Source of the DNA: a virus
IMG/VR virus record: IMGVR_UViG_3300045911_000143
Coordinates: 14,355 to 78,354 of that record
DNA: 64,000 bases
Reading direction: 5' to 3' (one strand)
Shown here: positions 13,933 to 63,919 of the stretch, piece after piece
Layout of the letters: every line of letters starts with the position of its first letter
Position numbering within the stretch: position 1 is the first letter of the stretch
Translations under genes and position numbers: made by a program
The notes under the pieces: model-generated
What the model saw: the letters and a program-made list of their open reading frames with translations, nothing else
What the model was told of the DNA's origin: nothing
Databases searched by the model: none

Positions 13933-14541
13933 ATGGAACTTTTTAAGAGAATTTTAATTGAGGAAGGCGAAAGGGCAGCAGACGCTCAAGTTAAACATGC
14001 CATTTCTGTTATTAACAAAATATATAATGAATGGAAAAAAACAAAGAGAAGAATTAACGCTGTTGATATTATAACAACATCGATCAATAAAATTTCTAAT
14101 ATATCTCCAGCACTATTACCTTTCATTCACGATGCTGCAAAATTGAAATTAGTAATAATTATAACTAGATGTATGGATTCACCACCTTGGGAAGATATAT
14201 CAAGACTAGAAAAAAGATATAAAAAACTATTCCCATTAATAAAATTACTACAGAACATAACTTCTACATCTGAAAGTGGCGGTAGTTTGAGAGAAGTTAT
14301 AATGACAAGACTTAGTGCCAATATTTGTTATAATGACAAGACTTGTAAAACTTTTGTTGGATATGAACCGATAATATCAAAAAATTATTTGAAGTATCTG
14401 TTAGGAACAAAACAGGTAGAGAAAGCATATAGAATGCAATCTCTACCATTACCCGATGATTTTGAAAGATTGATTGAAACTTTAAAAATAAATCACGAAA
14501 AGGCAAAATCAAAGTTCGAAAAACAAACTTCCGTTGAATAG
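13933..14541 (+). CDS. hypothetical late protein
   Basis: CATAAATA at 13903; N-terminal ILIEE. Confidence 0.6.
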   Translation: MELFKRILIEEGERAADAQVKHAISVINKIYNEWKKTKRRINAVDIITTSINKISNISPALLPFIHDAAKLKLVIIITRCMDSPPWEDISRLEKRYKKLFPLIKLLQNITSTSESGGSLREVIMTRLSANICYNDKTCKTFVGYEPIISKNYLKYLLGTKQVEKAYRMQSLPLPDDFERLIETLKINHEKAKSKFEKQTSVE

Positions 14542-16626: not shown

Positions 16627-16713
16627 TGGTGCTGGCGGTGAGATTCGAACTCACGAAGGCTTTACGCCGCCTACTTACAAGGCAGGTCCAATTGGCCGCT
16701 ATGGGACACCAGC
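16627..16713 (-). tRNA. tRNA-Thr(UGU) with long variable arm
   Basis: Full cloverleaf GCTGGTG...CTTGTAA...TTCGAAT...CGCCAGC-ACCA, 87 nt. Confidence 0.75.
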
Positions 16714-21549: not shown

Positions 21550-21969
21550 TTAGGGTTGAACGCTTGGAGGACTGCCATAATTAGGGCAACCTCGTTCTGC
21601 ATCAACATCCGTGGCGTGGCAGGCGCAGGTTATGCTCTCGAAAGAATCACTGAGAAGATCAGTGTCGATGGTATAGATTACTGTCGTGCCGTTGACAGCA
21701 CCACGAGAATCAAACTTGAAAGAAAGTACCAGTTCCGCCTCCCTATCCTTGGTATGGACCCCATTCTGGCGGGACAGGAAATACACTACACCGGGTCCGG
21801 GGTTCTGGGTGCCTGTGTTGATATGCAGCGGCACCGTAGGATCGCCAGAATATGCACATTCATAAACAACATTTACGGGCATATTCGGGTTTTGCAGCAA
21901 GCAAAGTTGCTGTCCATCAGGATCAATGATGCAGAAGTTTGTCACGATCATCAAGATGGCGTAGAGCAT
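21550..21969 (-). CDS. exported Cys-containing protein
   Basis: GAGGA RBS, hydrophobic N-terminus, LLSDSFES motif. Confidence 0.55.
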   Translation of the reverse strand: MLYAILMIVTNFCIIDPDGQQLCLLQNPNMPVNVVYECAYSGDPTVPLHINTGTQNPGPGVVYFLSRQNGVHTKDREAELVLSFKFDSRGAVNGTTVIYTIDTDLLSDSFESITCACHATDVDAERGCPNYGSPPSVQP

Positions 21970-22133
21970 AATTTTTTCCTCTTGGACGAATATTATACCA
22001 CATGATATGGCAGTAGTAAAGTCAAATATTTTGTGCAGTGGAGTACCTCCGTCCGACCATCCCATTTTATCATATAATGGAATAGAATGCAAGAAAAAGG
22101 CGGTAGAAACCGCCCTTAAATGAATCCGCGATT

Positions 22134-22208
22134 TGGTGCCGCCTGAGCGACTTGCGCGCTCCTGATCTGCTTACAAGGCAGTTGCCTCGCTATCTAGGCT
22201 TAGGCGGC
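22134..22208 (-). tRNA. tRNA-Thr(UGU), non-canonical T and D loops
   Basis: GCCGCCT/AGGCGGC-ACCA acceptor, CTTGTAA loop, T-loop CGCAAGT. Confidence 0.65.
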
Positions 22209-22320
22209 TTTAATCGTAATGATCCAGCAAAATCCAGCATCCTGCAACGAGGATTGCTGCCACAGTGATCCAGAACATTCGGGAGATTCGATGCATTGGA
22301 TTCAATCTTGAGTTAAGGGA

Positions 22321-22454
22321 ATGGTGGCGGAAACGTATTAGCGCCTTATTGATTCTCTTAGCCGGTCATCGACCAAAGGTTTCCGGCGCTAATCGGAAAT
22401 CCTTTGCTGACCCATCCTAGCCATCCGCCTCAAGTGCGTTAGCAGGACCACCAT
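22321..22454 (-). ncRNA. unknown structured small RNA, copy 1
   Basis: Own TTGCAA/TATAAT promoter; 41-nt 5' block identical to 27002-27113; closing stem and pseudoknot. Confidence 0.65.
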
Positions 22455-22507
22455 ATGAAGCATTATACTACCATTGGATCAGGATTGCAAGGACTTTACT
22501 ATCTGGA

Positions 22508-22732
22508 TTAGTAATCGTCCCCGAAGTATCCATAATCTTCATCGGTTCCCATCCCAGCAGATGCCAGCGCCCAGCCGTCATCGGAATCATCGCAGTCGAT
22601 TTCAGGCTCCTCATCAGGGTCTTCATAGGCCAGCATGGGATCGAAAACTTCCCGGCAATCCATGCAAGTCCAATTGTCATCGTGCGTTTCCTGAGTGTTG
22701 AGGGAACCGCAGGCGGGGCAATGATAGTTCAT
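22508..22732 (-). CDS. zinc-ribbon protein with acidic tail
   Basis: CPAC...CMDC; GGAG RBS. Confidence 0.65.
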   Translation of the reverse strand: MNYHCPACGSLNTQETHDDNWTCMDCREVFDPMLAYEDPDEEPEIDCDDSDDGWALASAGMGTDEDYGYFGDDY

Positions 22733-22834
22733 TTGGGGTTCTCCGGTTGAGGAAAACATTATACTATGTTTGGTTGCAGGGTGCAAGCGATTACCTTGCT
22801 TTCCACCCTGCGCCTTCCACGAAAAGCGATTATC

Positions 22835-23038
22835 TTACTGATGCGAGATTTTTGCAATTCGCATCAAGTAGTTAGCCGCGTTGATGATGTATTCTTCATT
22901 CGTGATTGCGCGCTGCCAATACCATTGCTGGCGGGCCACGTATTCCCCCTTTCTTTCGTAAGGCATACGCTTTTCCCTTGCCTTCTCCCGATAGTGAAGA
23001 ATACGCTTGGCGAAAACTTCGAGGATTTCAGGATTCAT
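22835..23038 (-). CDS. hypothetical protein
   Basis: ORF; tiling. Confidence 0.45.
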   Translation of the reverse strand: MNPEILEVFAKRILHYREKAREKRMPYERKGEYVARQQWYWQRAITNEEYIINAANYLMRIAKISHQ

Positions 23039-23042
23039 AGTA

Positions 23043-23270
23043 TCATGCCTTATACTTTTTCACCAGTCCAGCCAAATTTTCTTCTGCCCCTTCAAGGCTT
23101 GTACGTTGCGAGCATGGCCGCCATTTGGTCTTAAAAGTGGGGCAAATGGCGGTATCAAAATTGTTGTAACAGAATGTTTCCAGCACAATATGCGAATCAT
23201 CCTCAAGCCGGACGATTGCATATTTCTTTTCTGCGCTGACCGTTACAACCCTGATCGCTTGCACTAACAT
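23043..23270 (-). CDS. hypothetical protein
   Basis: AGGAG RBS. Confidence 0.55.
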   Translation of the reverse strand: MLVQAIRVVTVSAEKKYAIVRLEDDSHIVLETFCYNNFDTAICPTFKTKWRPCSQRTSLEGAEENLAGLVKKYKA

Positions 23271-23298
23271 TCTCCTGATCGATTATGCTGCTATTGTA

Positions 23299-23511
23299 TC
23301 AGCCTTCCGCCCCAAGTTCAGCATAGGCAAGACTGATCGCAGCCGAATCTGATTCGGTGTAAAAAAGTTCCGGCCACGACTTGTCGGGGTTGCCGTGGCG
23401 GTTCCAAATGAATTGGCCCAACCGCAGATGGGTGCCCTTGCGCGCACCAACCTTGAAATACTCGTTAATCGTGGCGCTGAGGGTTTCGATGTTGCAGTTC
23501 AGGCGATCCAT
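23299..23511 (-). CDS. hypothetical protein (RLGQ...PELFY family)
   Basis: GGGAG RBS; common phage motif. Confidence 0.65.
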   Translation of the reverse strand: MDRLNCNIETLSATINEYFKVGARKGTHLRLGQFIWNRHGNPDKSWPELFYTESDSAAISLAYAELGAEG

Positions 23512-23577
23512 AGTGTTCTCCCTTGATATGGATTGTATTATATCACAAAATGGATACCAGTCAACCCCCTTGATAGA

Positions 23578-23611
23578 AAAAGGGCCGCCAGTTTTTTGGC
23601 GGCCCTTTTTT
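23578..23611. terminator. bidirectional intrinsic terminator
   Basis: aaaagggccgcca-loop-tggcggcccttttt. Confidence 0.75.
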
Positions 23612-23612
23612 G

Positions 23613-23852
23613 TCAGATCAGCCCTTCCCTTTTGGCCTTACTCACATATACCGCCGCGCTGGATTTCTTAATCCCAGACGCCACGACAGCATCCACGCGA
23701 GCCTTGTTCTCCGCATCGGCGGGGAGGGCCTTCAGAATCGCAACTGCGCGGTCATATGCGGTTTCGGCCAACTTGGGCCGTCCACGGCCACGCTTGGCTT
23801 GGATCACAGGGGCAGTGTTCTCGGGGTTTGTGACTTCGGTGTTATCATTCAT
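23613..23852 (-). CDS. AT-hook small DNA-binding protein
   Basis: KRGRGRPK plus helical domain; paralog of the 31979 C-terminus. Confidence 0.65.
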   Translation of the reverse strand: MNDNTEVTNPENTAPVIQAKRGRGRPKLAETAYDRAVAILKALPADAENKARVDAVVASGIKKSSAAVYVSKAKREGLI

Positions 23853-24181
23853 GTTTCAGTTCCTATTTTGGTGGTGGAGGCTGTATTATACAACGATTAG
23901 ATTAGACTTTCAAGCACCCCGTTGACGCATTCCAGTGACCGGGGTGGTGCAGGACCATTTGTTTTCAAGTGAGACTTACTATAGCACGCATCTTCTATCA
24001 AATACAAGTATTGTAATGTAAGATATTTCGTGCTAAAATGGGATGGTGGACGGGGATGGTATAAAAGAGAAAAAGGCGGGTGCCCTAGGACACCCGCCTT
24101 GTCTTGTCACCAGCCACCACGGCTGGTTTCTCGCTTCGCCCTCTCAAGGTGTAACTATTATCTCACAAATGGGGGAGGGTG

Positions 24182-25048
24182 TCAACCCTCCCCTTCCCCC
24201 GCGTCAGGCTTGCGGTTCAGGATGTAGTCTGCCGCCTTTTGCGCCCTTGCCGCTGCGGTGGCGAACAAATGCGGATCGCTTCGCAGCGCGCGGGACCATC
24301 CGTCAAGGTACGCCGCAGTATTCTCAATCACCTTGGGGGCAATCCCGGCTTCGGCACTCAGGAAACATGCTGCCAGTTCCGCCACAAGTTCCTCGCGGCT
24401 GTATTCGTGGGAACCGAAATAGGAAGGCTGATCGATTTCTTTTCGGTTCAAGCGAGACTTGTGGCCGGTGCTATGGGCAAGTTCATGGAACAGAGTAGCA
24501 TAGAAACTTTCCGCAGAATCGAAAGTCTCACGATGCGGTATATTGATTTTGTCAATCGTTGGGATGTAACATGCACGCTCCCCGCCGTAGCGGATTTCGG
24601 GGCGGTTCGGCATACCATTGACAATGGCCTCACATGCGTCCAGAACCGGGACAGCCTCGCGGGCCTCATGGGGCGGAAGTTCGATCCCGTCAACTTGCGC
24701 AATGTTGTAAACGAGGAAAAATCTGAAAATGGGGAAGGTTGATTCCTCGCCACTTTCATCGGTACGCTTCACCCAGTTCCAAAAATAGACCGGAGTATGC
24801 GCCTTTTCCTCGCCAGCCTTGATTGTTCCCCCGGCAGCCTTGATCTGATTGTAGGTCAGCCAGACCGATTCGGGATAACCCTTCATGACTTGTACCATGT
24901 TAAGCATGAAGGTGTTGATTCCCCGGTAGGTCCGTCCGCTGATGTTACGCGGGGGGTCCGATGCCTTCCACGGCTTCAACCACGGGGCCGTACCATTTTC
25001 GATCATCTTAAGAATCTGATCGGTCAGAATCTGATAGACTTTCGACAT
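24182..25048 (-). CDS. ardC: ArdC-family ssDNA-binding antirestriction protein
   Basis: APW.KPW, Y.GIN, W.TY.Q, FHELAHSTGH..RL.R, YS.EELVAE, AAY...W. Confidence 0.9.
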   Translation of the reverse strand: MSKVYQILTDQILKMIENGTAPWLKPWKASDPPRNISGRTYRGINTFMLNMVQVMKGYPESVWLTYNQIKAAGGTIKAGEEKAHTPVYFWNWVKRTDESGEESTFPIFRFFLVYNIAQVDGIELPPHEAREAVPVLDACEAIVNGMPNRPEIRYGGERACYIPTIDKINIPHRETFDSAESFYATLFHELAHSTGHKSRLNRKEIDQPSYFGSHEYSREELVAELAACFLSAEAGIAPKVIENTAAYLDGWSRALRSDPHLFATAAARAQKAADYILNRKPDAGEGEG

Positions 25049-25308
25049 AGCGTCGTCTCCGTTGATGGTGAAATCATTATCCGATATTAGCCTTTGGTTG
25101 TCAAGTGTCAATCGGCTATTTTTTGATCGTTTAAAGGCTTGACTATCAGATTGGATGATGTATAATGCTTTACATGGTTAGGGCGGTAACGACAGCCCCG
25201 ATCACAGCCCCGAAACGGGAACTTTGGCAACCTAGATTAATTGAGGGTAGGATGGTTTACCCCCGCGACGGCCCGTAAGAAAAATTGATGGTTGTAAACC
25301 AAACGAGC

Positions 25309-25344
25309 AAAAAATCCAGACCAAAGTTATGGTCTGGATTTTTT
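25309..25344. terminator. bidirectional terminator ending a + strand short transcript
   Basis: aaaaaatccagacca-aagtta-tggtctggatttttt. Confidence 0.75.
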
Positions 25345-25605
25345 AATTTACAGCATCCCGTCCGACCATCCCATTTTATCATATAATGGAATAGAATGCA
25401 ACAAAAAAGGGAGGCTTTTGCCTCCCTTTTGAGTTTGTTAGAATCCTTCCCCGTAAACGAACGCATCCTGATCCGCTGCACGCTCGGCGGCCAACCGATC
25501 CAGCCATTCGTGGTAGGCAATGTCGGATTCTAACATTTCAAGTTCTTCGTCGTTCATGGCTTCCTCCAGTTGGTGAAATCATTATATTACATCAACGCAG
25601 TTGAG

Positions 25606-25992
25606 TCAAGCGAAAACTTCGGAAATTTTCTGACGCCATTTTAGTTTTGCAGATTCTTTCACGAAAGCAATTTGCGTGCCGGACACCCCCATTTTCCAAC
25701 ACTCAACACCATCGTTATTTGCAGGGCCGAGATTGTAACAGGAAACCAAGAAACCGGCTTCATGAAGGTGAAGGTCTAAGTATAGGGGGAACCACTGGCG
25801 CAGTTTTCTGACTGAAGGTGCGCCATAATACACTGTTCCGGGGTGTTGTCCCTTTAGTTTGTGGATGCCATCATTATATGGTGATGGATAACTTTCCCCA
25901 ATGATTTCTCGGATAAGATCAGCCTGTCCGTCCCATTCATCGCAACGGAATGGTCCCAAACCTTTCTCGTTTTCAACTCTATAGGCCAGCAT
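25606..25992 (-). CDS. hypothetical protein (YRVE...G.GP family)
   Basis: ORF directly after promoter. Confidence 0.6.
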   Translation of the reverse strand: MLAYRVENEKGLGPFRCDEWDGQADLIREIIGESYPSPYNDGIHKLKGQHPGTVYYGAPSVRKLRQWFPLYLDLHLHEAGFLVSCYNLGPANNDGVECWKMGVSGTQIAFVKESAKLKWRQKISEVFA

Positions 25993-26111
25993 TGTAGTAT
26001 CATACCATATATTATTTTATTTCTCAAGTGTTGTATTCTATTCCATTCTATGATAAAATGGGATGGTCGGACGGGGTTGGTAATAAGTGATTAAAACCTC
26101 CCTATATCTTT

Positions 26112-26384
26112 TCACGTTGGGTATTCCAAACGATGCTTTTTCAGTGCATCGGCACGATCCCATGCACGATAATAACACTCGACCTCACCATCCGCATCAT
26201 AGACGCAATAGAGGGGGATATAAGAACCCCAATAGGTACCGCTCGGATCATATCCGCCACGATCCAATCGAACCTTGCGGCAGTAGAGTTTGGCCGAACG
26301 ATTGGCGTTGTAGTTGCGCCGACCCAAGGGAGCGCCACGAGAGCAGTTGACGGGGTTGGCTTTCAGACGTGCGTTAATGTCCAT
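26112..26384 (-). CDS. conserved hypothetical protein (GAP.GR...GYD..G.YWG)
   Basis: Motif; leaderless geometry. Confidence 0.6.
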   Translation of the reverse strand: MDINARLKANPVNCSRGAPLGRRNYNANRSAKLYCRKVRLDRGGYDPSGTYWGSYIPLYCVYDADGEVECYYRAWDRADALKKHRLEYPT

Positions 26385-26507
26385 GACCATCATTCTACAC
26401 TGATTGGAATAGAAATCAAGTCTTGTAATGTAATTGATTTCGTGCTAAAATGGGATGGTGGTCGGTGATAGTGGTGAAGAAGTGAGTTGCCTCACTTCGG
26501 TCATACT

Positions 26508-26891
26508 CTAGTCGAGGAAAGAATACAAGGCTTCAACATTCAGCGAGCGATCATTATAGGCTGCCTCCCTCATCGCATAGAATCGCTCGCTCAATTCTTC
26601 GGTACATTTCTCAACATACTTCCACAGGGAAACATTGTAAAGCAACAGGGTTAGGGCAACCCCGAAGGTGCGGTGATTCATCGTACCTTCATAGTAGTTG
26701 TTATCATTTACCACATTGTAAAGGCCCTCCGGGGCGATGACAAAATCAAAGCCGCCGATGTTCTCGACAGTCCATTGACCGCCAGTGTAATCCTCAGAAT
26801 GGTTCCGCGCAAGATTATACAGGCCATTCTCAGCCACGTGCGGGGGAAGTAGCGGAAAGATGCGAGCAAGATCATTCCAATTCATTGCCAT
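26508..26891 (-). CDS. ArdB/KlcA-family antirestriction protein
   Basis: Y.GG.W, N.YEG.M...FG...TL, C-terminal FLD. Confidence 0.75.
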   Translation of the reverse strand: MAMNWNDLARIFPLLPPHVAENGLYNLARNHSEDYTGGQWTVENIGGFDFVIAPEGLYNVVNDNNYYEGTMNHRTFGVALTLLLYNVSLWKYVEKCTEELSERFYAMREAAYNDRSLNVEALYSFLD

Positions 26892-27001
26892 CAGATTTCT
26901 TTCTTTCAGTGTTGGGGTATTATATTCCATTATAGGATGGTTGTCAAGCGTTTTGGTTAGTCAACCCGCAAACATCCCTTGTCCAGTTCACTTAGGTTGG
27001 T

Positions 27002-27113
27002 TGGTGGCGTGGTCTAATCGACATTAACCCTCTTGTTGACACTACGCAGTCGATATTCGCGTTATACGTCTTATCCTAGCCATCCGCCTCAAGTGCGTTA
27101 GCAGGACCACCAT
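27002..27113 (-). ncRNA. unknown structured small RNA, copy 2
   Basis: Own TTGACA/TATAAT promoter; same scaffold as 22321-22454. Confidence 0.65.
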
Positions 27114-27354
27114 GCAAAACATTATACAGTGTTTTCTTCCGTTGTCAATAGTGGAGTTATCAGATTGGTGACTTTAAAGATGCATTCCCCCCGTCCTCCT
27201 GTCACCATTTTAGCATGGAATGTAATACAATGCAAGTCTTGACAAACGATTTTTTTTATGGGAGACTAATCGCAAGGCATCCTCTTGTCACAAAAGATTC
27301 ATAAGATATTTTTCAAAAAACGCTTGACAGTAACATTTCATTATGTTACACTAA

Positions 27355-27780
27355 TCAGTTGGCCAGTTTCAGTGCCAGCACTTCAATATTACCAAACGAT
27401 TCAAAGTAATTGCTCCAAGGGTTATCCAATTTAACCTGTTTACCATCGGATGATGTGTATACAAGGTATTGATTTTTCTGACAATTATTCAATTCAGATT
27501 CAGCCCTTCTAGCATCACATTCTGTTTCATATACGTCAAAAAATTTTATATTTGCATCCATGTTCCATCCGAGTGAGTCGTCAGTATCATAGATTGCAAC
27601 AAGGGCGTAATAGAGTTGGCCCACCTTTGGTGTGAAGCCAACATCAACAAATTCGTTGCCGTATGTCAACGATAGTTGACCAAACTTCCATTCAGTAATG
27701 GTGTTGGGATGTGAATGATCTTGCGATCCAAAACCGTCTTCATAAGACAATTTTGAATATTGCAAATAGATTCTAGGCAT
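27355..27780 (-). CDS. hypothetical protein (cargo of module 1)
   Basis: 141 aa ORF. Confidence 0.65.
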   Translation of the reverse strand: MPRIYLQYSKLSYEDGFGSQDHSHPNTITEWKFGQLSLTYGNEFVDVGFTPKVGQLYYALVAIYDTDDSLGWNMDANIKFFDVYETECDARRAESELNNCQKNQYLVYTSSDGKQVKLDNPWSNYFESFGNIEVLALKLAN

Positions 27781-28622: not shown

Positions 28623-29003
28623 TTAGGGGTTATACTGTTCTCCATTTACCCACCACTCTTGTGTTCCGTCAGAACGGATTACAGCGGGTTGGCCATTGTC
28701 GCGGTGACGTACTCCGTTAACCCACCACTCTTGTGTTCCGTCAGAACGGATTACAGCGGGTTGGCCATTGTCGCGGTGACGTTCTCCATTAACCCACCAC
28801 TCTTGTGACCCATCGGGGTGAATTACAGCAGGTTGGTCTCCAAGGCGGTGCTTTACTCCGTCCTTCCACCAGCCTTGATACCCATTAGTTAGAATTAAAG
28901 CCGGTAAATCATCTCCTCGATGCCGAACACCATACTGATTTTGGTACTCAGTCCGTATTAGCCTGCCGTCATCATCAAAAGTTTCTAGCCTATTGATCGT
29001 CAT
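28623..29003 (-). CDS. HRD..PA 24-aa repeat protein
   Basis: Four repeats, two near-identical 72-bp units. Confidence 0.8.
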   Translation of the reverse strand: MTINRLETFDDDGRLIRTEYQNQYGVRHRGDDLPALILTNGYQGWWKDGVKHRLGDQPAVIHPDGSQEWWVNGERHRDNGQPAVIRSDGTQEWWVNGVRHRDNGQPAVIRSDGTQEWWVNGEQYNP

Positions 29004-29416
29004 TATTATCTCCAATTTTTGGGATATTTATAATAGTATTTCATGATGGAAATCTAGGATTCCATCATCTCCCAAAAATGTTTTCACACTTTCAACGAGG
29101 ATTGAGGGTGTCAACAATCCTCGTTGAAAACTCACCGTCAAACTGGGTTTTCTGCAAAACCACAATTTTACGATTTTGTTCCTTTGCCAAAGCCTGTGCC
29201 AGTGCAATAGCAAACTTGTAATGCTTTTCAGGGAAAACCAAACCTTCAACCAGATATTCACCGACATTCGCACTCATTATTTTTTCCCTTATGTTTTGGG
29301 TTGCGTTGGTAGTCGTTCTTGCGGTCCTTATGCTTTGCCGCTTTGTTGAATTTTCGGAAATGTTTGGCAACAGGATTCTTCACGTCCCTATTCTCTAAAT
29401 TGATTGAAGCATTATA

Positions 29417-31978: not shown

Positions 31979-32596
31979 TCAAACTCGCGGAATCACGCCC
32001 GCCTGCCGTGCGTTGCACAGATAAACGTGGGCACTCGACTTCTTAATACCAGCGGCTTCCAGCGCAGAGATAACCGTCTTGGTATCATACTTGTCGAGGC
32101 TTCGCATGATCTTAACGGCGCGGTCATATGCGGTTTCGGCCAGTTTGGGACGACCACGGCCACGCTTGGCTTGGATCACTTCGGGGACGGCCACGATAGG
32201 TGCAGCATCTACAGCGGGCGTTGGGGCCTCCACCGTGGTTTCCGGGGCATCATCGACCGTCACCGTCACTTCCGGCTCAGGCGCGACTTCCACGACCACA
32301 GGGGCGGAATAGACAACCGGCACGAGGTCAGCCGGGACTTCCTTCACGACGGCGGCAGAAAGAGCCTTAACCCGGCTCGAAACATATGCCTTAACCCTGT
32401 TTAGGTCATTCTCACCCTTGAGGACGGCATTGCAGATATACTTGGCGATCAGATTTGGGTTGTCGCCACCATGAATGTCAAACAGGGACGTAAACAGGGA
32501 CGCATCTTCACTCGGCATGGCATCCACGAAAGCCGTGGCATCCACGACCGAGGTCAGGGGGATATCAAACTTTTCCAGATACGATGTCAGGTTCAT
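31979..32596 (-). CDS. AT-hook DNA-binding protein with Pro/Ala/Val linker
   Basis: VIQAKRGRGRPKLAETAYDRAV identical to the 23613 gene; AAGGA RBS. Confidence 0.7.
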   Translation of the reverse strand: MNLTSYLEKFDIPLTSVVDATAFVDAMPSEDASLFTSLFDIHGGDNPNLIAKYICNAVLKGENDLNRVKAYVSSRVKALSAAVVKEVPADLVPVVYSAPVVVEVAPEPEVTVTVDDAPETTVEAPTPAVDAAPIVAVPEVIQAKRGRGRPKLAETAYDRAVKIMRSLDKYDTKTVISALEAAGIKKSSAHVYLCNARQAGVIPRV

Positions 32597-32820
32597 TTGC
32601 TTTCCTTTGTTAGTGCCGGGACCATCCCCGACCATGTGAAGCATTATACACCGTTTCAGTTGAATTGCAATATCCCGATGTGTTGTATTTTTACCACAAC
32701 TCTTGTTGTATTTTTACCACATCGCTTGACAATCTTTACATTACATGTTAAAATAGGTTGGTGGTTGAGATGATAACAAATAACCCCAAGCCCATTGTGG
32801 CGGGCTTGGGGCGGAAGCCC

Positions 32821-46571: not shown

Positions 46572-47428
46572 TGTAAGCCTGAGATTAAGACTTAACGCAG
46601 CAACCTTTCCGGTCATTATCCCACACTTGCAGGTGTAGGTTCTACCGTTATCCACGCACTCGTGTGCGTATTTGCCATACCTGCTCATTTATTTAAAGCG
46701 CGCGAGCTTATTGCGCTTGTCACCAATGACACTACTCATGGTTCTGTCTACCGCTTGCCTTGCGGGCAATAAGAGGACGCTAATCCCCTACGTGCGACTT
46801 TCCCACAACAATCTATCACCTTGCGAGTTCTAGACTGGCTTGATTCAGTTGCCTGTCAAGCATTAAGGTACTTTTCATCATTGGCCGGTGACAACTTTGC
46901 TATGTACTTATATACCATTCAAAGTTTTAATACCGCCTGAACTTGCGTGCCACCGTTGCTTCATAACCTTTTGGGCTACAAAATACAACACAAGTTCGTA
47001 TCCGTTCATTGGCATTACTAGGATTGTCATTTTCGATCAAGCTGTTAACTTGACCTATTGACTGGATTACGCACTTGCCTGCCAAGACTCGCACTAAAAT
47101 CCTACACCTTAGATAGTAAACTATGAAAGTTGCATCTACTAGAGGTTTGCTGCCTCAACAATTTCAGTTTTACCCTCAATTGCTTTCGTAGCATTCAGTC
47201 GTTTACCCCCTCACCCAACTCGGTAAGTGGATACCCCCTCTTTTGGAGAGGAATACATCCGGTGCTTTCTTGAATAGACCATATTGCTATGGCGAACGGG
47301 TTGGCGACCCATCCTTTATGCATATCACTATGCACTATCCTTGCACTTAAAGAGTTGCCCCTTTAAGTGTGTCAAGCCAGACCTTTCGGTTTCGTTCCTT
47401 TATGGTGGAACTCATCAGTGGCTACCGT
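46572..47428 (-). ncRNA. large ornate RNA, GOLLD-like
   Basis: About 850 nt without credible ORF, dense hairpins, own TTGACA/TAAGAT promoter (47435-47462), next to tRNA cluster; motifs GAAAAGT..TAATG, CTCGCAAG, GAAAGT, TGAGTAG, GTGGATA, TAATCTCAG recalled from GOLLD. Confidence 0.65.
47375..47423 (-). ncRNA. type I hammerhead ribozyme
   Basis: AGCCA-CTGATGA-GTTCC(ACCATAAA)GGAAC-GAA-ACC(GAAA)GGT-C-TGGCT; all core nucleotides present. Confidence 0.85.
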
Positions 47429-48853: not shown

Positions 48854-49306
48854 TCAAATTTTTACAGTTTTATACTTTACTCCATTTTTATACCATGCTT
48901 TGCCACCATTAGGCCAAACTACGGCAGGTTCATCACCATCTCGGTGCAATACTCCGTATCTGTACCAACATTGTTTGCCATTAATGCATATAGACGCAAC
49001 CTGATTATTCTCTCTATGCCGCAACCCAAATTTGTACCAGTGCATTTCTCCATTTGGAAATATAATGGAGGGTTCATCACTGTCACGATGGAGAACACCG
49101 TTATAGTAGTAGTACAGCCTGCCGTCAAAGTATTCTAATGCAGGTAAGTCATTGTTTCTATGGAACAATCCATCCTTAAACCAAGCCTTACTACCATTAC
49201 TCCAGACTATTGCAGGTTCATCATCGTCACGATGAATTACGCCAAATTCGTTACGGTATTCTACTCTTGAAAATTTACCGTCTTTGATTTCAACTTTCGT
49301 TAGCAT
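48854..49306 (-). CDS. HRD..PA 24-aa repeat protein
   Basis: Five diverged repeats. Confidence 0.8.
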   Translation of the reverse strand: MLTKVEIKDGKFSRVEYRNEFGVIHRDDDEPAIVWSNGSKAWFKDGLFHRNNDLPALEYFDGRLYYYYNGVLHRDSDEPSIIFPNGEMHWYKFGLRHRENNQVASICINGKQCWYRYGVLHRDGDEPAVVWPNGGKAWYKNGVKYKTVKI

Positions 49307-60568: not shown

Positions 60569-61207
60569 TCAAGTATCTAAATCAACCATGAATCTTACTT
60601 CATACCCCTTTTCGTACATCATTCTTTTCCAAACTTCAAACGAGATCAATGTCATTTGACGGTCAACATACAATGATGAAGTACCCGCTTCAATTTTTTC
60701 CAACTCCCAATTCAGATGCATCAAAATATGAAAATCTGATGGTAGTATGTCAGACGTGCCAATAGACCATTGACTGGAGGATACATTATCATCCTCCTCC
60801 AGCCTAAGAGTATAGGGCAGCCCAAGCGTCCCATCAAACATTTCAACACCAAAGGTTGGGTAAATATTATAATACCTAAAATTTGGCATTAAAAACCTTA
60901 ATGCAGATTTAATTCTGCCCTTTTTGAGGGCAATAAAAAATTCTTTAATCGCACACTTAAAAATGTGAAGATTTGAAAGACTAAATCTGATGTTATCTAA
61001 AATATTTTTCAAATGAAATCTAACCCACGGGAATTCTCGATAACTAAAAATCGTATCGAGTCCCATAGGATGAAATTCTGAGGTTCTATACCATAGAATC
61101 TTATTATCCGCTTTAGGATACATCTTAGGATCATAAGCATATGGGTGGAGATACAGACGCTCTCCACCCTTTACAATTTTAACACCTTTAAATGTAGATT
61201 TTTTCAT
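60569..61207 (-). CDS. hypothetical protein
   Basis: 212 aa ORF. Confidence 0.6.
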   Translation of the reverse strand: MKKSTFKGVKIVKGGERLYLHPYAYDPKMYPKADNKILWYRTSEFHPMGLDTIFSYREFPWVRFHLKNILDNIRFSLSNLHIFKCAIKEFFIALKKGRIKSALRFLMPNFRYYNIYPTFGVEMFDGTLGLPYTLRLEEDDNVSSSQWSIGTSDILPSDFHILMHLNWELEKIEAGTSSLYVDRQMTLISFEVWKRMMYEKGYEVRFMVDLDT

Positions 61208-61796
61208 TCCATTTAGTCTCTGATTGAATCAATCTGTACCGCTTGCCATCAATGATAACAGACTTGCTTTCTTGATTGCAACTCTGGTTAAGATTGTATA
61301 AAAGGCCATTCTTGTACCATTCCTGAGTACCATCTGCACGAATCATAGCAGGCTTGTCTCCATCTCTGTGACATTTGTCAGTTTTGTACCAAAACTGACT
61401 ACCATCTGCATAAATGATGGCAGGCTTGTCTCCATCCCTGTGTTTTTTTCCATCTTTGTACCAAACCTGAGTACCATCCGCATAAATCACAGCAGGCTTG
61501 TCCCCATCCCTGTGGCGTTTGCCATTCTTGATCCAAAACTGGCTACTATCCGCACGAATGGCAGCAGGCTTGTCGCCATCCCTATGGGCTTCGCCATCCT
61601 TGAACCAAAACTGACTACCACCTGCATAAATGATAGCAGGCTTATCATCATCCCGATGAAGTTTGCCATCCTTGTACCAATGCTGACTACCATCTTTATA
61701 AACGATAGCAGGCTTATCATCATCCCGATGAAGTTTGCCATTCTTATAGAACTCAGTCCTATCTGAGTAATCTTTGTAGCTATAAACGTCAGTCAT
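61188..61796 (-). CDS. HRDGDKPA repeat protein (6 repeats)
   Basis: Direct translation. Confidence 0.85.
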   Translation of the reverse strand: MTDVYSYKDYSDRTEFYKNGKLHRDDDKPAIVYKDGSQHWYKDGKLHRDDDKPAIIYAGGSQFWFKDGEAHRDGDKPAAIRADSSQFWIKNGKRHRDGDKPAVIYADGTQVWYKDGKKHRDGDKPAIIYADGSQFWYKTDKCHRDGDKPAMIRADGTQEWYKNGLLYNLNQSCNQESKSVIIDGKRYRLIQSETKWNEKIYI

Positions 61797-61801
61797 GAAT
61801 G

Positions 61802-62239
61802 TTATCCCTCAGGAACAAGTTTGTATTTCTTTCCATCAATGATAACAAACTTATTTGATGGATTGCAAGTCTGACTAGGTTTATATCTAAGGCCATTTTT
61901 AAACCATTCCTGAGTACCATTTGCATGAATCACGGCGGGCTTGTCTCCATCCCTGTGGAGATTGTTATTCTTATACCAATACTGGCTACCATCTGCCAAA
62001 ATTATAGCAGGTTTGTCTCCATCTCTATGGCGTTTGCCATCCTTCCACCATTCCTGCGCACCATTTGCATAAATCACGGCAGGCTTGTCGCCATCCCTAT
62101 GGCGTTCGCCATAATCATACCAATACTGGCTACCATTTGCATAAATGATAGCAGGCTTATCCCCACCCCGATGAAGTTTTCCGTTCTTATAGAACTCAGT
62201 CCTGTCTGGAAAATCTTTATATGTATAAATGTCAGCCAT
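61802..62239 (-). CDS. HRDGDKPA repeat protein (4 repeats)
   Basis: Direct translation. Confidence 0.85.
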   Translation of the reverse strand: MADIYTYKDFPDRTEFYKNGKLHRGGDKPAIIYANGSQYWYDYGERHRDGDKPAVIYANGAQEWWKDGKRHRDGDKPAIILADGSQYWYKNNNLHRDGDKPAVIHANGTQEWFKNGLRYKPSQTCNPSNKFVIIDGKKYKLVPEG

Positions 62240-62241
62240 GA

Positions 62242-62967
62242 TTATTCCTCTGGAACAAGTCTGTATCGCTTGCCGTCAATGATAACAGACTTGTTAGATG
62301 GGTTACAAGTCTGACTAGGTTTATATCCAAGGCCATTTTTAAACCATTCCTGAGTACCATTTGCATGAATCACAGCAGGCTTGCCTCCATCCCTGTGGAG
62401 ATTGTTATTCTTATACCAATACTGAGTACCATATACACTAATCACAGCAGGCTTGTCTCCGTCTCTGTGAAGTTTGTCATTCTTATACCAAAATTGGCTA
62501 CCATCTGCATAAATCACAGCAGGCTTATCATTATCCCTCTGACGTTCGCCATCCTTGTACCAATGCTGGCTACCATTTGCATAAATGGCGGCAGGCTTGT
62601 CACCATCTCTGTGAAGATTACCGTTCTTATACCAAAATTGGCTACCATCTGCATAAATCACAGCAGGCTTATCATCATCCCGATGAAGTTTGCCATCCTT
62701 GTACCAATACTGGCTACCATTTGTATAAATGTTAGCAGGCTCGTCCCCATCCCTATGTTGTTTACCATTCTCATACCAAAATTGGGTACCATCCGCCCAG
62801 ACGATAGCAGGCTTGTCTTCATCTCTATGGAGTTTTCCATCCTTGTACCAATACTGACTACCATCTGCACGAATGATAGCAGGCTTATCTCCATCCCTGT
62901 GAAGTTTGCCATTCTTATAGAACTCGGTCTTGTCTGGAAAATCTTTATATGTATAAACGTCAGCCAT
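62242..62967 (-). CDS. HRDGDKPA repeat protein (8 repeats)
   Basis: Start at MADVYTY by homology with paralogs. Confidence 0.85.
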   Translation of the reverse strand: MADVYTYKDFPDKTEFYKNGKLHRDGDKPAIIRADGSQYWYKDGKLHRDEDKPAIVWADGTQFWYENGKQHRDGDEPANIYTNGSQYWYKDGKLHRDDDKPAVIYADGSQFWYKNGNLHRDGDKPAAIYANGSQHWYKDGERQRDNDKPAVIYADGSQFWYKNDKLHRDGDKPAVISVYGTQYWYKNNNLHRDGGKPAVIHANGTQEWFKNGLGYKPSQTCNPSNKSVIIDGKRYRLVPEE

Positions 62968-62969
62968 GA

Positions 62970-63479
62970 TTATTCTTCTGGAACAAGTTTGTATTTCTTG
63001 CCGTCGATAATAACAGACTTGCTTTCTGGATTGCAAGTTTGTTTAGGCTCGTATGATATGCCATTCCTGTACCAAAATTGGCTACCATCTGCATAAATGA
63101 CGGCAGGCTTATCTCCATCTCTGTGGGGTTTGTCGTCTTTCCACCACTCCTGAGTACCATCAGCCAAAACCACAGCAGGCTTGTCACCATCCCTGTGTTT
63201 TTTGCCATCTTTGTACCAATATTGACTACCACTTGAATAAATCACAGCAGGATTGTCTCCATCCCTGTGGATTTTGTTGTTTTTATACCACCACTGACTA
63301 CCATCTGCATAAACGATAGCAGGCTTGTCTCCATCTCTGTGGAGTTTGCCATCCTTATACCATTCCCGAGTACCATCATTTTGATCGATAGCAGGCTTGT
63401 CACCATCTCTGTGGAGTTTGCCATTCTTATAGAATTCGATCTTATTTTCAAAATCTCTGTAAGTATAAACGTCAGCCAT
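62970..63479 (-). CDS. HRDGDKPA repeat protein (5 repeats)
   Basis: Direct translation. Confidence 0.85.
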   Translation of the reverse strand: MADVYTYRDFENKIEFYKNGKLHRDGDKPAIDQNDGTREWYKDGKLHRDGDKPAIVYADGSQWWYKNNKIHRDGDNPAVIYSSGSQYWYKDGKKHRDGDKPAVVLADGTQEWWKDDKPHRDGDKPAVIYADGSQFWYRNGISYEPKQTCNPESKSVIIDGKKYKLVPEE

Positions 63480-63481
63480 GA

Positions 63482-63919
63482 TTATTCCTCGGGAACGAGT
63501 TTGTACCTCTTTCCGTCAATGATAACAGACTTGCTTTCTGGATTGCAAGTCTGACTAGGCTTGTATCTAAACCCGTCCTTGTACCATTCTTGAGTACCAT
63601 CAGCCAAAACCACAGCGGGCTTATCTCCACCCCTGTGCTGTTTGTCATCCTTGTACCAAAACTGACTACCATCTGCATAAATGATGGCGGGTTTGTCATC
63701 ATCCCTGTTTAATTTCCCATGTTTGTACCAAAACTGACTACCATCTGGATAAACAACAGAAGGCTTATCCCCATCACGATGAATTTTACCGTCCTTATAC
63801 CAATACTGCCTACCATCTGCATAAATGACGGCAGGCTTATCCCCATCCCTATGTTGTTTTCCGTTCTTATAGAATACAGTCCTGTCTTCAAAATCTTTAT
63901 ATGTATAAACGTCAGTCAT
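63482..63919 (-). CDS. HRDGDKPA repeat protein (4 repeats)
   Basis: Direct translation. Confidence 0.85.
   Translation of the reverse strand: MTDVYTYKDFEDRTVFYKNGKQHRDGDKPAVIYADGRQYWYKDGKIHRDGDKPSVVYPDGSQFWYKHGKLNRDDDKPAIIYADGSQFWYKDDKQHRGGDKPAVVLADGTQEWYKDGFRYKPSQTCNPESKSVIIDGKRYKLVPEE

Follow-up and report, generated by a model that had tools for sequence, protein, structure and literature searches.

What is encoded at two short loci, about 5 kb apart on the minus strand of an uncultured phage genome, that begin with the same 41 nucleotides (nt), end with the same octamer, and differ in between? Both lie in IMG/VR virus record IMGVR_UViG_3300045911_000143, and the window analyzed here is a 64,000-nt stretch of that record (positions 14,355 to 78,354). 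An original prediction, made from the letters of the window alone, had described the loci as two copies of a small RNA in which an invariant scaffold is joined to a sequence-variable pseudoknot. We find that the pair is a real, cleanly delimited, and uncatalogued structured RNA; as an orphan of a single genome, it is a candidate and not a result. The reading that we favor, tentatively, is that the two loci are paralogous genes for an undescribed small structured non-coding RNA, stable and processed, which would combine a shared handle with two different effector knots.

In each copy, a promoter is followed by an invariant module, a variable middle, and a 3' octamer. The module begins with the 5' strand of a predicted terminal helix (P1) and continues into a predicted hairpin (P2), while the octamer provides the 3' strand of P1. 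In window positions, the parts are as follows.

22322-22454, minus strand: RNA domain of copy 1, 133 nt; the U at 22321 could extend the terminal helix by one pair
27002-27113, minus strand: RNA domain of copy 2, 112 nt
22462-22490, minus strand: promoter of copy 1, TTGCAA-17-TATAAT, with the predicted start at A 22454
27121-27148, minus strand: promoter of copy 2, TTGACA-16-TATAAT (12/12), with the predicted start at A 27113
22414-22454, minus strand: invariant 41-nt module of copy 1, with the P1 5' strand at 22454-22448 and P2 at 22447-22415
27073-27113, minus strand: invariant module of copy 2, the identical 41 nt
22322-22329, minus strand: 3' octamer of copy 1, CGCCACCA, the P1 3' strand, RNA positions 126-133
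27002-27009, minus strand: 3' octamer of copy 2, CGCCACCA, RNA positions 105-112

Both copies were found where the original prediction had put them (22454-22322 and 27113-27002, minus strand), each with the first 41 nt identical to the other and each behind its own strong sigma70-type promoter. The 39-nt core of the module occurs exactly twice in the window, with 0 mismatches and 0 occurrences expected in shuffles, and the whole 78-kb record likewise holds only two copies of the module. A covariance model of the module, run with filters off, gave 69.6 bits for each copy and 11 bits for the next best match. The distance from the -10 hexamer to the A of AUGG is 7 nt in both copies, and outside the hexamers the two promoters are unrelated. 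That two unrelated promoters are placed alike relative to an identical first base is, in our view, the best single argument that selection acts on the transcript.

The same observations bear on whether the repeat acts at the level of DNA, either as a scar left by recombination or shuffling or as the edge of a cassette within a hyperplastic region of the T4 type, with the RNA folds incidental. T4-like phages are known to shuffle early-region cassettes through PeSLs, short conserved promoter/terminator motifs (PMC4122927). The two copies do flank an early region of the hyperplastic type that is packed with early promoters and bidirectional terminators; they bracket the block of ArdC and ArdA-like genes, and their perfect identity suggests recent conversion. 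However, we consider this explanation unlikely, because the copies conserve the transcribed 41 nt but not the promoters, and because recombination could not maintain a match as short as the separate 8 nt at the 3' end, which are complementary to the 5' end. Both copies also retain an unrelated yet perfectly spaced promoter. DNA contigs covering the stretch stop at the 41-nt repeat, with no variants in either copy, and the assembly graphs, which break at the repeat, contain no rearranged form across it.

The original prediction had also proposed that the common 3' end pairs with the 5' end, and this pairing is present. P1 joins the 5' AUGGUGG(U) to CGCCACCA in 8 bp in copy 1, counting the extra U, and in 7 bp in copy 2, with predicted energies of -12.2 and -11.3 kcal/mol, respectively. 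It abuts P2, the invariant 33-nt hairpin, in which an irregular stem of 11 bp carries a loop of 7 nt (-11.4 kcal/mol). Since both elements are identical in the two copies, neither can show covariation; the predicted helices draw their support from thermodynamics and from the conservation of both P1 strands. Judging from the sequence, we put at about 1e-4 or less the chance that two unrelated tails of about 100 nt would have in common a 6-8-mer complementary to the 5' end.

Between P2 and the octamer, the middles (63-85 nt) cannot be aligned, and blastn-short finds no significant similarity between them, as had been proposed; the 7-mer CGAUUAG is common to both (E 0.2). Nevertheless, the two middles can be folded into the same arrangement, with a hairpin (P3) whose loop is complementary to a segment closer to the 3' end.

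22364-22412, minus strand: hairpin P3 of copy 1, with an outer GGUCA/UGACC helix, an inner helix of 11 bp with one bulge (22405-22375), and the loop AUUAGCGC (22393-22386)
22337-22359, minus strand: A-rich linker and pseudoknot arm of copy 1, with AAGAG at 22359-22355 and the 3' arm GCGCUAAU at 22344-22337
27017-27070, minus strand: the same parts of copy 2, with P3 at 27070-27038, the loop arm AUCGAC at 27054-27049, AAGAG at 27034-27030, and the 3' arm GUCGAU at 27022-27017

In copy 1, the loop AUUAGCGC(C) is complementary to GGCGCUAAU, and in copy 2 AUCGAC is complementary to GUCGAU. Each P3 is bipartite, and a hairpin with an H-type pseudoknot is possible in both copies. The complementarity described earlier between loop and 3' segment, after AAGAG, is thus present in each: AAGAG precedes the 3' arm inside the A-rich linker, and the arm stops exactly 7 nt short of CGCCACCA in both. 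To gauge this arrangement we used 5000 dinucleotide shuffles. For copy 1, the loop had to offer 8 or more Watson-Crick pairs and to be closed by 6 bp or more; for copy 2, at least 6 pairs and a stem of at least 4 bp were required. The architecture of copy 1 appeared in 4/5000 shuffles and that of copy 2 in 226/5000, or 58/5000 when the spacing to the octamer was also required. These low counts make it unlikely that the common architecture is due to chance, though the test is post hoc. What the original prediction had called natural covariation was too strong a term, given the non-homologous middles, the equally stable nested folds, and the absence of orthologues among the databases searched. 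Because the middles cannot be aligned, the copies share an architecture and a topology, which is not the same as compensatory covariation.

Elsewhere in the genome, a search for antisense targets of the RNAs found no complementarity of at least 11 nt beyond chance, and sites complementary to the P2 loop were not enriched. The P2 loop has a 5-nt match to the anticodon loop of the phage tRNA-Leu(CAA), no better than chance among 17 tRNAs, and it is weakly complementary to the 3' flank of each copy (CUCAAG and UAAGUG), in registers that differ. A tail with more C than G, resembling a Rho-utilization site, was inconsistent between the copies.

Could the units encode a peptide instead? Neither has a Shine-Dalgarno (SD) sequence or a credible open reading frame (ORF) over 158 and 183 nt, whereas the typical early unit here, judged from about 20 others, has a leader of 16-25 nt with a GGAG SD. 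Against that background, the two units stand out as non-coding, and ORFs overlapping the RNAs are absent from the protein collection. The original prediction had left room for a leaderless peptide, and the part of that claim that stands is the AUG at the predicted start of both copies. From it, the frames stay open for 21 and 23 codons with the first 13 residues in common (MVVLLTHLRRMAR...). The units lie in an early anti-restriction region, and the products would perhaps be small anti-restriction peptides like T4 Stp. The claim is weakened by the finding that AUGG also begins the tRNA-Ala transcript and the SD-bearing leader of the gene at 32635, neither of which is a leaderless ORF, and by the predicted sequestration of the AUG in P1. 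In addition, the 13 shared codons contain zero synonymous differences while the rest has diverged past recognition, and the open run of 8-10 codons after the shared part is what chance would give. Nor would a peptide explain why an octamer 45-60 nt past the stop codons is conserved or why the two RNAs share an architecture. Consequently, we consider a micro-ORF improbable.

No terminator lies directly 3' of either copy, and the 3' end at CCACCA was placed by pairing alone. The features downstream are listed below.

22213-22296, minus strand: ORF in the spacer after copy 1, 28 codons, hydrophobic, without an SD and not in the protein collection; a doubtful gene
22134-22208, minus strand: tRNA-Thr(UGU)-like gene, 75 nt, compatible with a cloverleaf; the acceptor stem has 7 bp, the end is ACCA, and the D and T loops are non-canonical
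22091-22117, minus strand: intrinsic terminator of the copy 1 operon (z = -5.1), 230 nt past copy 1
26919-26947, minus strand: second 12/12 promoter, downstream of copy 2
26508-26930, minus strand: ArdA-like antirestriction gene, downstream of copy 2

Copy 1 is the first gene of a newly described RNA-only operon of about 364 nt, in which the RNA is followed by a spacer of 113 nt, the tRNA-Thr-like gene, and the terminator. This co-transcription, and the terminator 230 nt on, were not mentioned in the original prediction. The tRNA-Thr-like gene is degenerate; it has the acceptor pairs G1-C and C2-G, A8, and an anticodon arm nearly identical to that of the phage tRNA-Thr(UGU) at 16627-16713; its 5' half weakly matches an Aeromonas phage tRNA-Thr (86% over 35 nt, E 0.2). 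Neither ARAGORN nor the Rfam tRNA model detects it, and it could be a decoy or a specialized tRNA. The peptide of the spacer ORF would have one predicted membrane helix flanked by charged ends. Past copy 2, 55 nt separate the RNA from the second perfect promoter, which is followed by the ArdA-like gene; with this separate promoter, the gene is independent of the promoter of the RNA.

These surroundings can also be read as those of a cis-acting 5' leader, either one that causes antitermination in the manner of the put RNAs of phage HK022 or a 5'-end cap that protects against 5'-end-dependent decay. The HK022 put RNA, about 70 nt in two stem-loops with a minor-groove triplex in stem I, binds the zinc-binding domain of the beta' subunit of RNA polymerase, and the bound RNA suppresses pausing and termination (PMC9378689). 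Its two copies stand behind PL and PR, the putL fold begins at A3, and the effect extends over at least 10 kb (PMC9378689). The pair described here likewise comprises two copies, an early promoter lying just before each, with structure from nt 1-2 of the transcript and the 5' end flush in a helix. As no terminator directly follows either copy, transcription must continue, and strong intrinsic terminators lie downstream of both (22117-22091 for copy 1; 25430-25405, 24100-24073, and 23610-23577 for copy 2). Binding to a conserved host machine would, moreover, explain why the module is invariant. We therefore regard a leader as a real possibility, nearly as likely as the stable RNA that we favor. 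What it does not account for is the variable knot of 63-85 nt, the conserved closing 3' strand, and the fixed 7-nt spacing, and the put RNA, with its two stem-loops and triplex, has another architecture. Copy 1 heads an RNA operon of just 364 nt that is closed by a strong terminator, and the gene past copy 2 has a perfect promoter of its own. If stabilization were the purpose, a plain hairpin at the 5' end would suffice, such as that of the gene that starts at 32635.

We then asked whether the RNAs belong to a described family. The original prediction had recognized none, and Infernal searches agree: with Rfam 15, the whole window at gathering cut-offs returned GOLLD and tRNAs alone, matching neither copy, and when E values as high as 10 were allowed, 5.5 kb of sequence and the individual copies returned noise only, at 12.6 and 16 bits. 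Several individual candidates were considered and rejected. Neither copy is found as a tRNA by ARAGORN or by the Rfam tRNA model; a register with an ACCA overhang gives an "acceptor" of 4-5 bp, and the 7-8-bp register is blunt. Homology to T4 rnaC and rnaD amounts to words of 7-8 nt by blastn-short (E 0.4-1.5), and the folds differ. As in a retron msr-msd the ends pair, but RVT_1 is found nowhere on the 78-kb record, which covers about 21% of the genome. A ToxI-like type III antitoxin, one of the original suggestions, has nothing pointing to it, and TRF shows no tandem array of 34-45 nt in 21900-27400. For a Y RNA or YrlA, TROVE and RtcB are absent from the contig and there is no Rfam match; short words resembling Y RNA do not pair in the Y-RNA fashion. 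No model backs these words or the T-box-like GGUGGU.

Phage genomes are rich in small ribozymes, and a new self-cleaving or otherwise self-processing element, which would free itself from the early transcript, had also been suggested. The compact, closed, and pseudoknotted fold, the lack of a terminator, and the need for a 3' end at CCACCA would be in keeping with one. However, nothing points to a ribozyme: Rfam recognizes no known catalytic core, no ribozyme family is matched even with E up to 10, and the middles share no core nucleotides beyond AAGAG, which would be unusual for a catalytic center. This is the explanation that we consider least probable.

Relatives were sought widely. A blastn comparison of the two copies with 50,697 phage records found no relative, and neither did an exact 20-mer or a stem pattern in IMG/VR, the 20-mer in JGI metagenomes, or a 38-nt pattern, tolerant of transitions, in IMG/VR and in GTDB genomes. 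A pattern combining the promoter, the P1 5' strand, and CCACCA gave 27 matches in IMG/VR, all coding sequence or tRNA tails, and the scaffold model gave coding-sequence noise only on the closest cultured jumbo phages, XacN1 and Xoo-sp13. The 18-mer at the hairpin apex of copy 1 had one match, to a terminator hairpin, where about 1-2 are expected by chance, with no further resemblance. An RNA anti-CRISPR was also considered, and the transition-tolerant module pattern was unmatched in 185,579 species genomes, although mimics need not be so close and the host is not identified. Nor did searches with rIIA and the ArdA-like protein find close relatives in IMG/VR or GTDB; a metagenome scan gave distant ArdA loci only, and evident relatives of the phage are limited to two short Logan contigs that encode ArdA-like proteins 65-69% identical. 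No RNA run is among the sequencing runs listed for the stretch.

Which reading, then, fits best? A stable small RNA, processed like the RNAs of the T4 tRNA cluster, is suggested by the closed domain, the lack of an SD, the RNA-only operon of copy 1, and the neighbor of copy 2 having its own promoter. It also counts for this reading that the 41-nt module and the 3' octamer are duplicated exactly, although the copies differ in all other parts, promoters included. The phage itself seems to express stable RNAs in this fashion, since ARAGORN finds 18 tRNAs in the window, CCA is encoded in 18/18, and several tRNA genes have close promoters of their own. Under this reading, host sigma70 RNA polymerase would initiate each transcript at its first A, and the first 7-8 nt would pair with the 3' octamer to close a compact domain, P1 continuing into P2. 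A different insert of 63-85 nt in each copy, between P2 and the P1 3' strand, would fold as a hairpin and H-type pseudoknot 7 nt from P1. The domain would then be released or trimmed to species of about 112 and 133 nt whose 5' and 3' ends are hidden inside P1, an arrangement that classic stable RNAs also have. For copy 1, release by the tRNA-processing machinery seems plausible because it is co-transcribed with the tRNA-like gene and terminator. The shared handle and two knots at a fixed geometry suggest one common partner and two specificities: P1-P2 would be the common handle, providing stability and binding the one shared partner, and the two knotted domains would act most plausibly as early protein-binding decoys in the anti-restriction region. 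It is from the anatomy of the loci that we infer release, stability, action in trans, and decoy function.

Several points weigh against this reading. Minimum free energy prediction picks nested folds over the pseudoknot model, and at 37-70 C these folds equal or exceed the stability of P1, P2, P3, and the knot combined. The knot of copy 2 is weak for a hot-spring host (-5.9 kcal/mol at 37 C and -2.7 at 60 C). Because the nested folds are equally stable, we regard the pseudoknot as plausible but not proven. A discrete 3' end at CCACCA is deduced from pairing, and no terminator or known processing site is located there. The 100% identity over 41 nt could stem from recent gene conversion and not from selection on each base. 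No orthologues of the RNA were found in the databases searched, and the 78-kb fragment, about 21% of the genome, encodes no partner protein (no Ro60, RtcB, CCA-adding enzyme, or reverse transcriptase). Finally, the decoy function is wholly conjectural.

A bolder version of the favored reading would make the pair part of a modular RNA platform for anti-defense, in which the invariant P1-P2 handle gives stability and recruits a common partner, while swappable pseudoknot "warheads" serve as aptamer-like decoys for different host defense or RNA-binding proteins, with recombination at the 41-nt handle passing them from phage to phage. We think this version doubtful. The layout that invites it, a scaffold plus a variable module in an anti-defense region, was part of the original prediction and agrees with what we find: the bracketed region encodes ArdC (24182-25111), and the ArdA-like gene lies directly past copy 2.

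The wider genome is that of an uncultured, T4-like jumbo phage, known from a 78-kb IMG/VR fragment of a hot-spring or microbial-mat metagenome that is about 21% complete by CheckV. Its T4-like gene content includes rIIA, rIIB, and two RNA ligases, and its nearest cultured relatives are Xanthomonas jumbo phages (rIIA identity, 31-36%). It also carries a GOLLD RNA.

46576-46998, minus strand: GOLLD RNA, adjoining the tRNA cluster, with a score of 189.5 bits (gathering score, 150)

Several tRNA genes on the minus strand (49819, 30717, and 16720) have their own sigma70-type promoter 9-11 nt 5', which gives primary-transcript leaders of 2-5 nt. The tRNA-Ala transcript begins AU+GGGG, sharing its first letters with both RNAs. 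On the plus strand, a unit of about 255 nt (25174-25430) has the promoter TTGACT-16-TATAAT, a transcript that starts AUGGU, and a sole ORF of 34-37 codons; it stops at the bidirectional terminator 25405-25430, converges with a minus-strand gene of 39 codons, and may be another non-coding RNA. A recurrent element, in which a TAAAAT promoter-like sequence is combined with a G-rich stretch (GG..GGACGG..GG), is present on both strands. Its sites are at about 22040-22075 (minus), just past the copy 1 terminator; at 27165-27205 (minus), just upstream of the copy 2 promoter; and near 20.4, 24.0, 25.3, 26.1, and 26.4 kb. The site near the copy 2 promoter carries an SD and a 3-codon mini-ORF, and in spurious frames the elements appear as short protein-level repeats. 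A paralogous family of repeat proteins (28623-29015, 48854-49306, and 61188-63919, minus strand) shows 40-77% identity and internal repeats of about 24 residues, with one paralogue close to the early region. A 79-residue protein with an RGRGRPK (AT-hook-like) motif shares 61% identity with the C-terminal part of a protein of 218-221 residues encoded 8 kb away (23613-23852 and 31979-32644, minus strand).

Large phages keep yielding small folded RNAs, and the layout seen here, in which the start is fixed by two unrelated promoters and different knots hang at one position of a shared handle, suggests that scaffold and effector are separable. If the RNAs act in trans as decoys, they would represent RNA-based counter-defense with exchangeable specificity. 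If they act in cis as leaders, they would extend RNA-only control of polymerase or of decay to T4-like jumbo phages.

Several known systems resemble the pair in part. Type III antitoxin RNAs and the pseudo-ToxI decoys of phages are, like the RNAs described here in their predicted fold, small pseudoknotted RNAs that are potentially transcribed early against a host defense protein. However, RNAs of the ToxI type are tandem repeats of 34-45 nt processed by the toxin, whereas here there are no tandem repeats and no similar host element was found. Y RNAs and YrlA share the plan of a 5'/3' terminal stem with a conserved part, which is protein-binding in Y RNAs, plus a second, variable module, although the terminal stem here is just 7-8 bp. 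A PeSL is a composite of terminator and early promoter, while in the present pair the promoters differ and the conserved part is transcribed, without a U-run. HK022 putL and putR resemble the pair in that both involve two copies behind early promoters, a fold from the transcript start, no ORF, and terminators downstream. The put copies, though, are similar over their whole length, whereas here 41+8 nt are common, a 5'/3' helix closes the domain, and a variable knot lies inside; it is predicted architecture, and not sequence comparison, that sets the two apart.

A further comparison is with T4 species 1 (rnaC, 139 nt) and species 2 (rnaD, 119 nt), which are likewise non-coding RNAs of about 110-140 nt from a T4-type phage. 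To our knowledge, their function has gone unexplained for decades. They are expressed with tRNA genes and have no terminator of their own; copy 1 is predicted to be co-transcribed with a tRNA-like gene, and copy 2 is not. The ends of rnaC pair, as they do in the RNAs described here. In contrast, rnaC and rnaD are inside a tRNA cluster with no promoter at the 5' end, while the RNAs of this phage have their own promoters and are 5 kb apart in an anti-restriction region. Lastly, rnaC carries a canonical T-arm, whereas the two RNAs of this jumbo phage share a handle on which the middles have been swapped.

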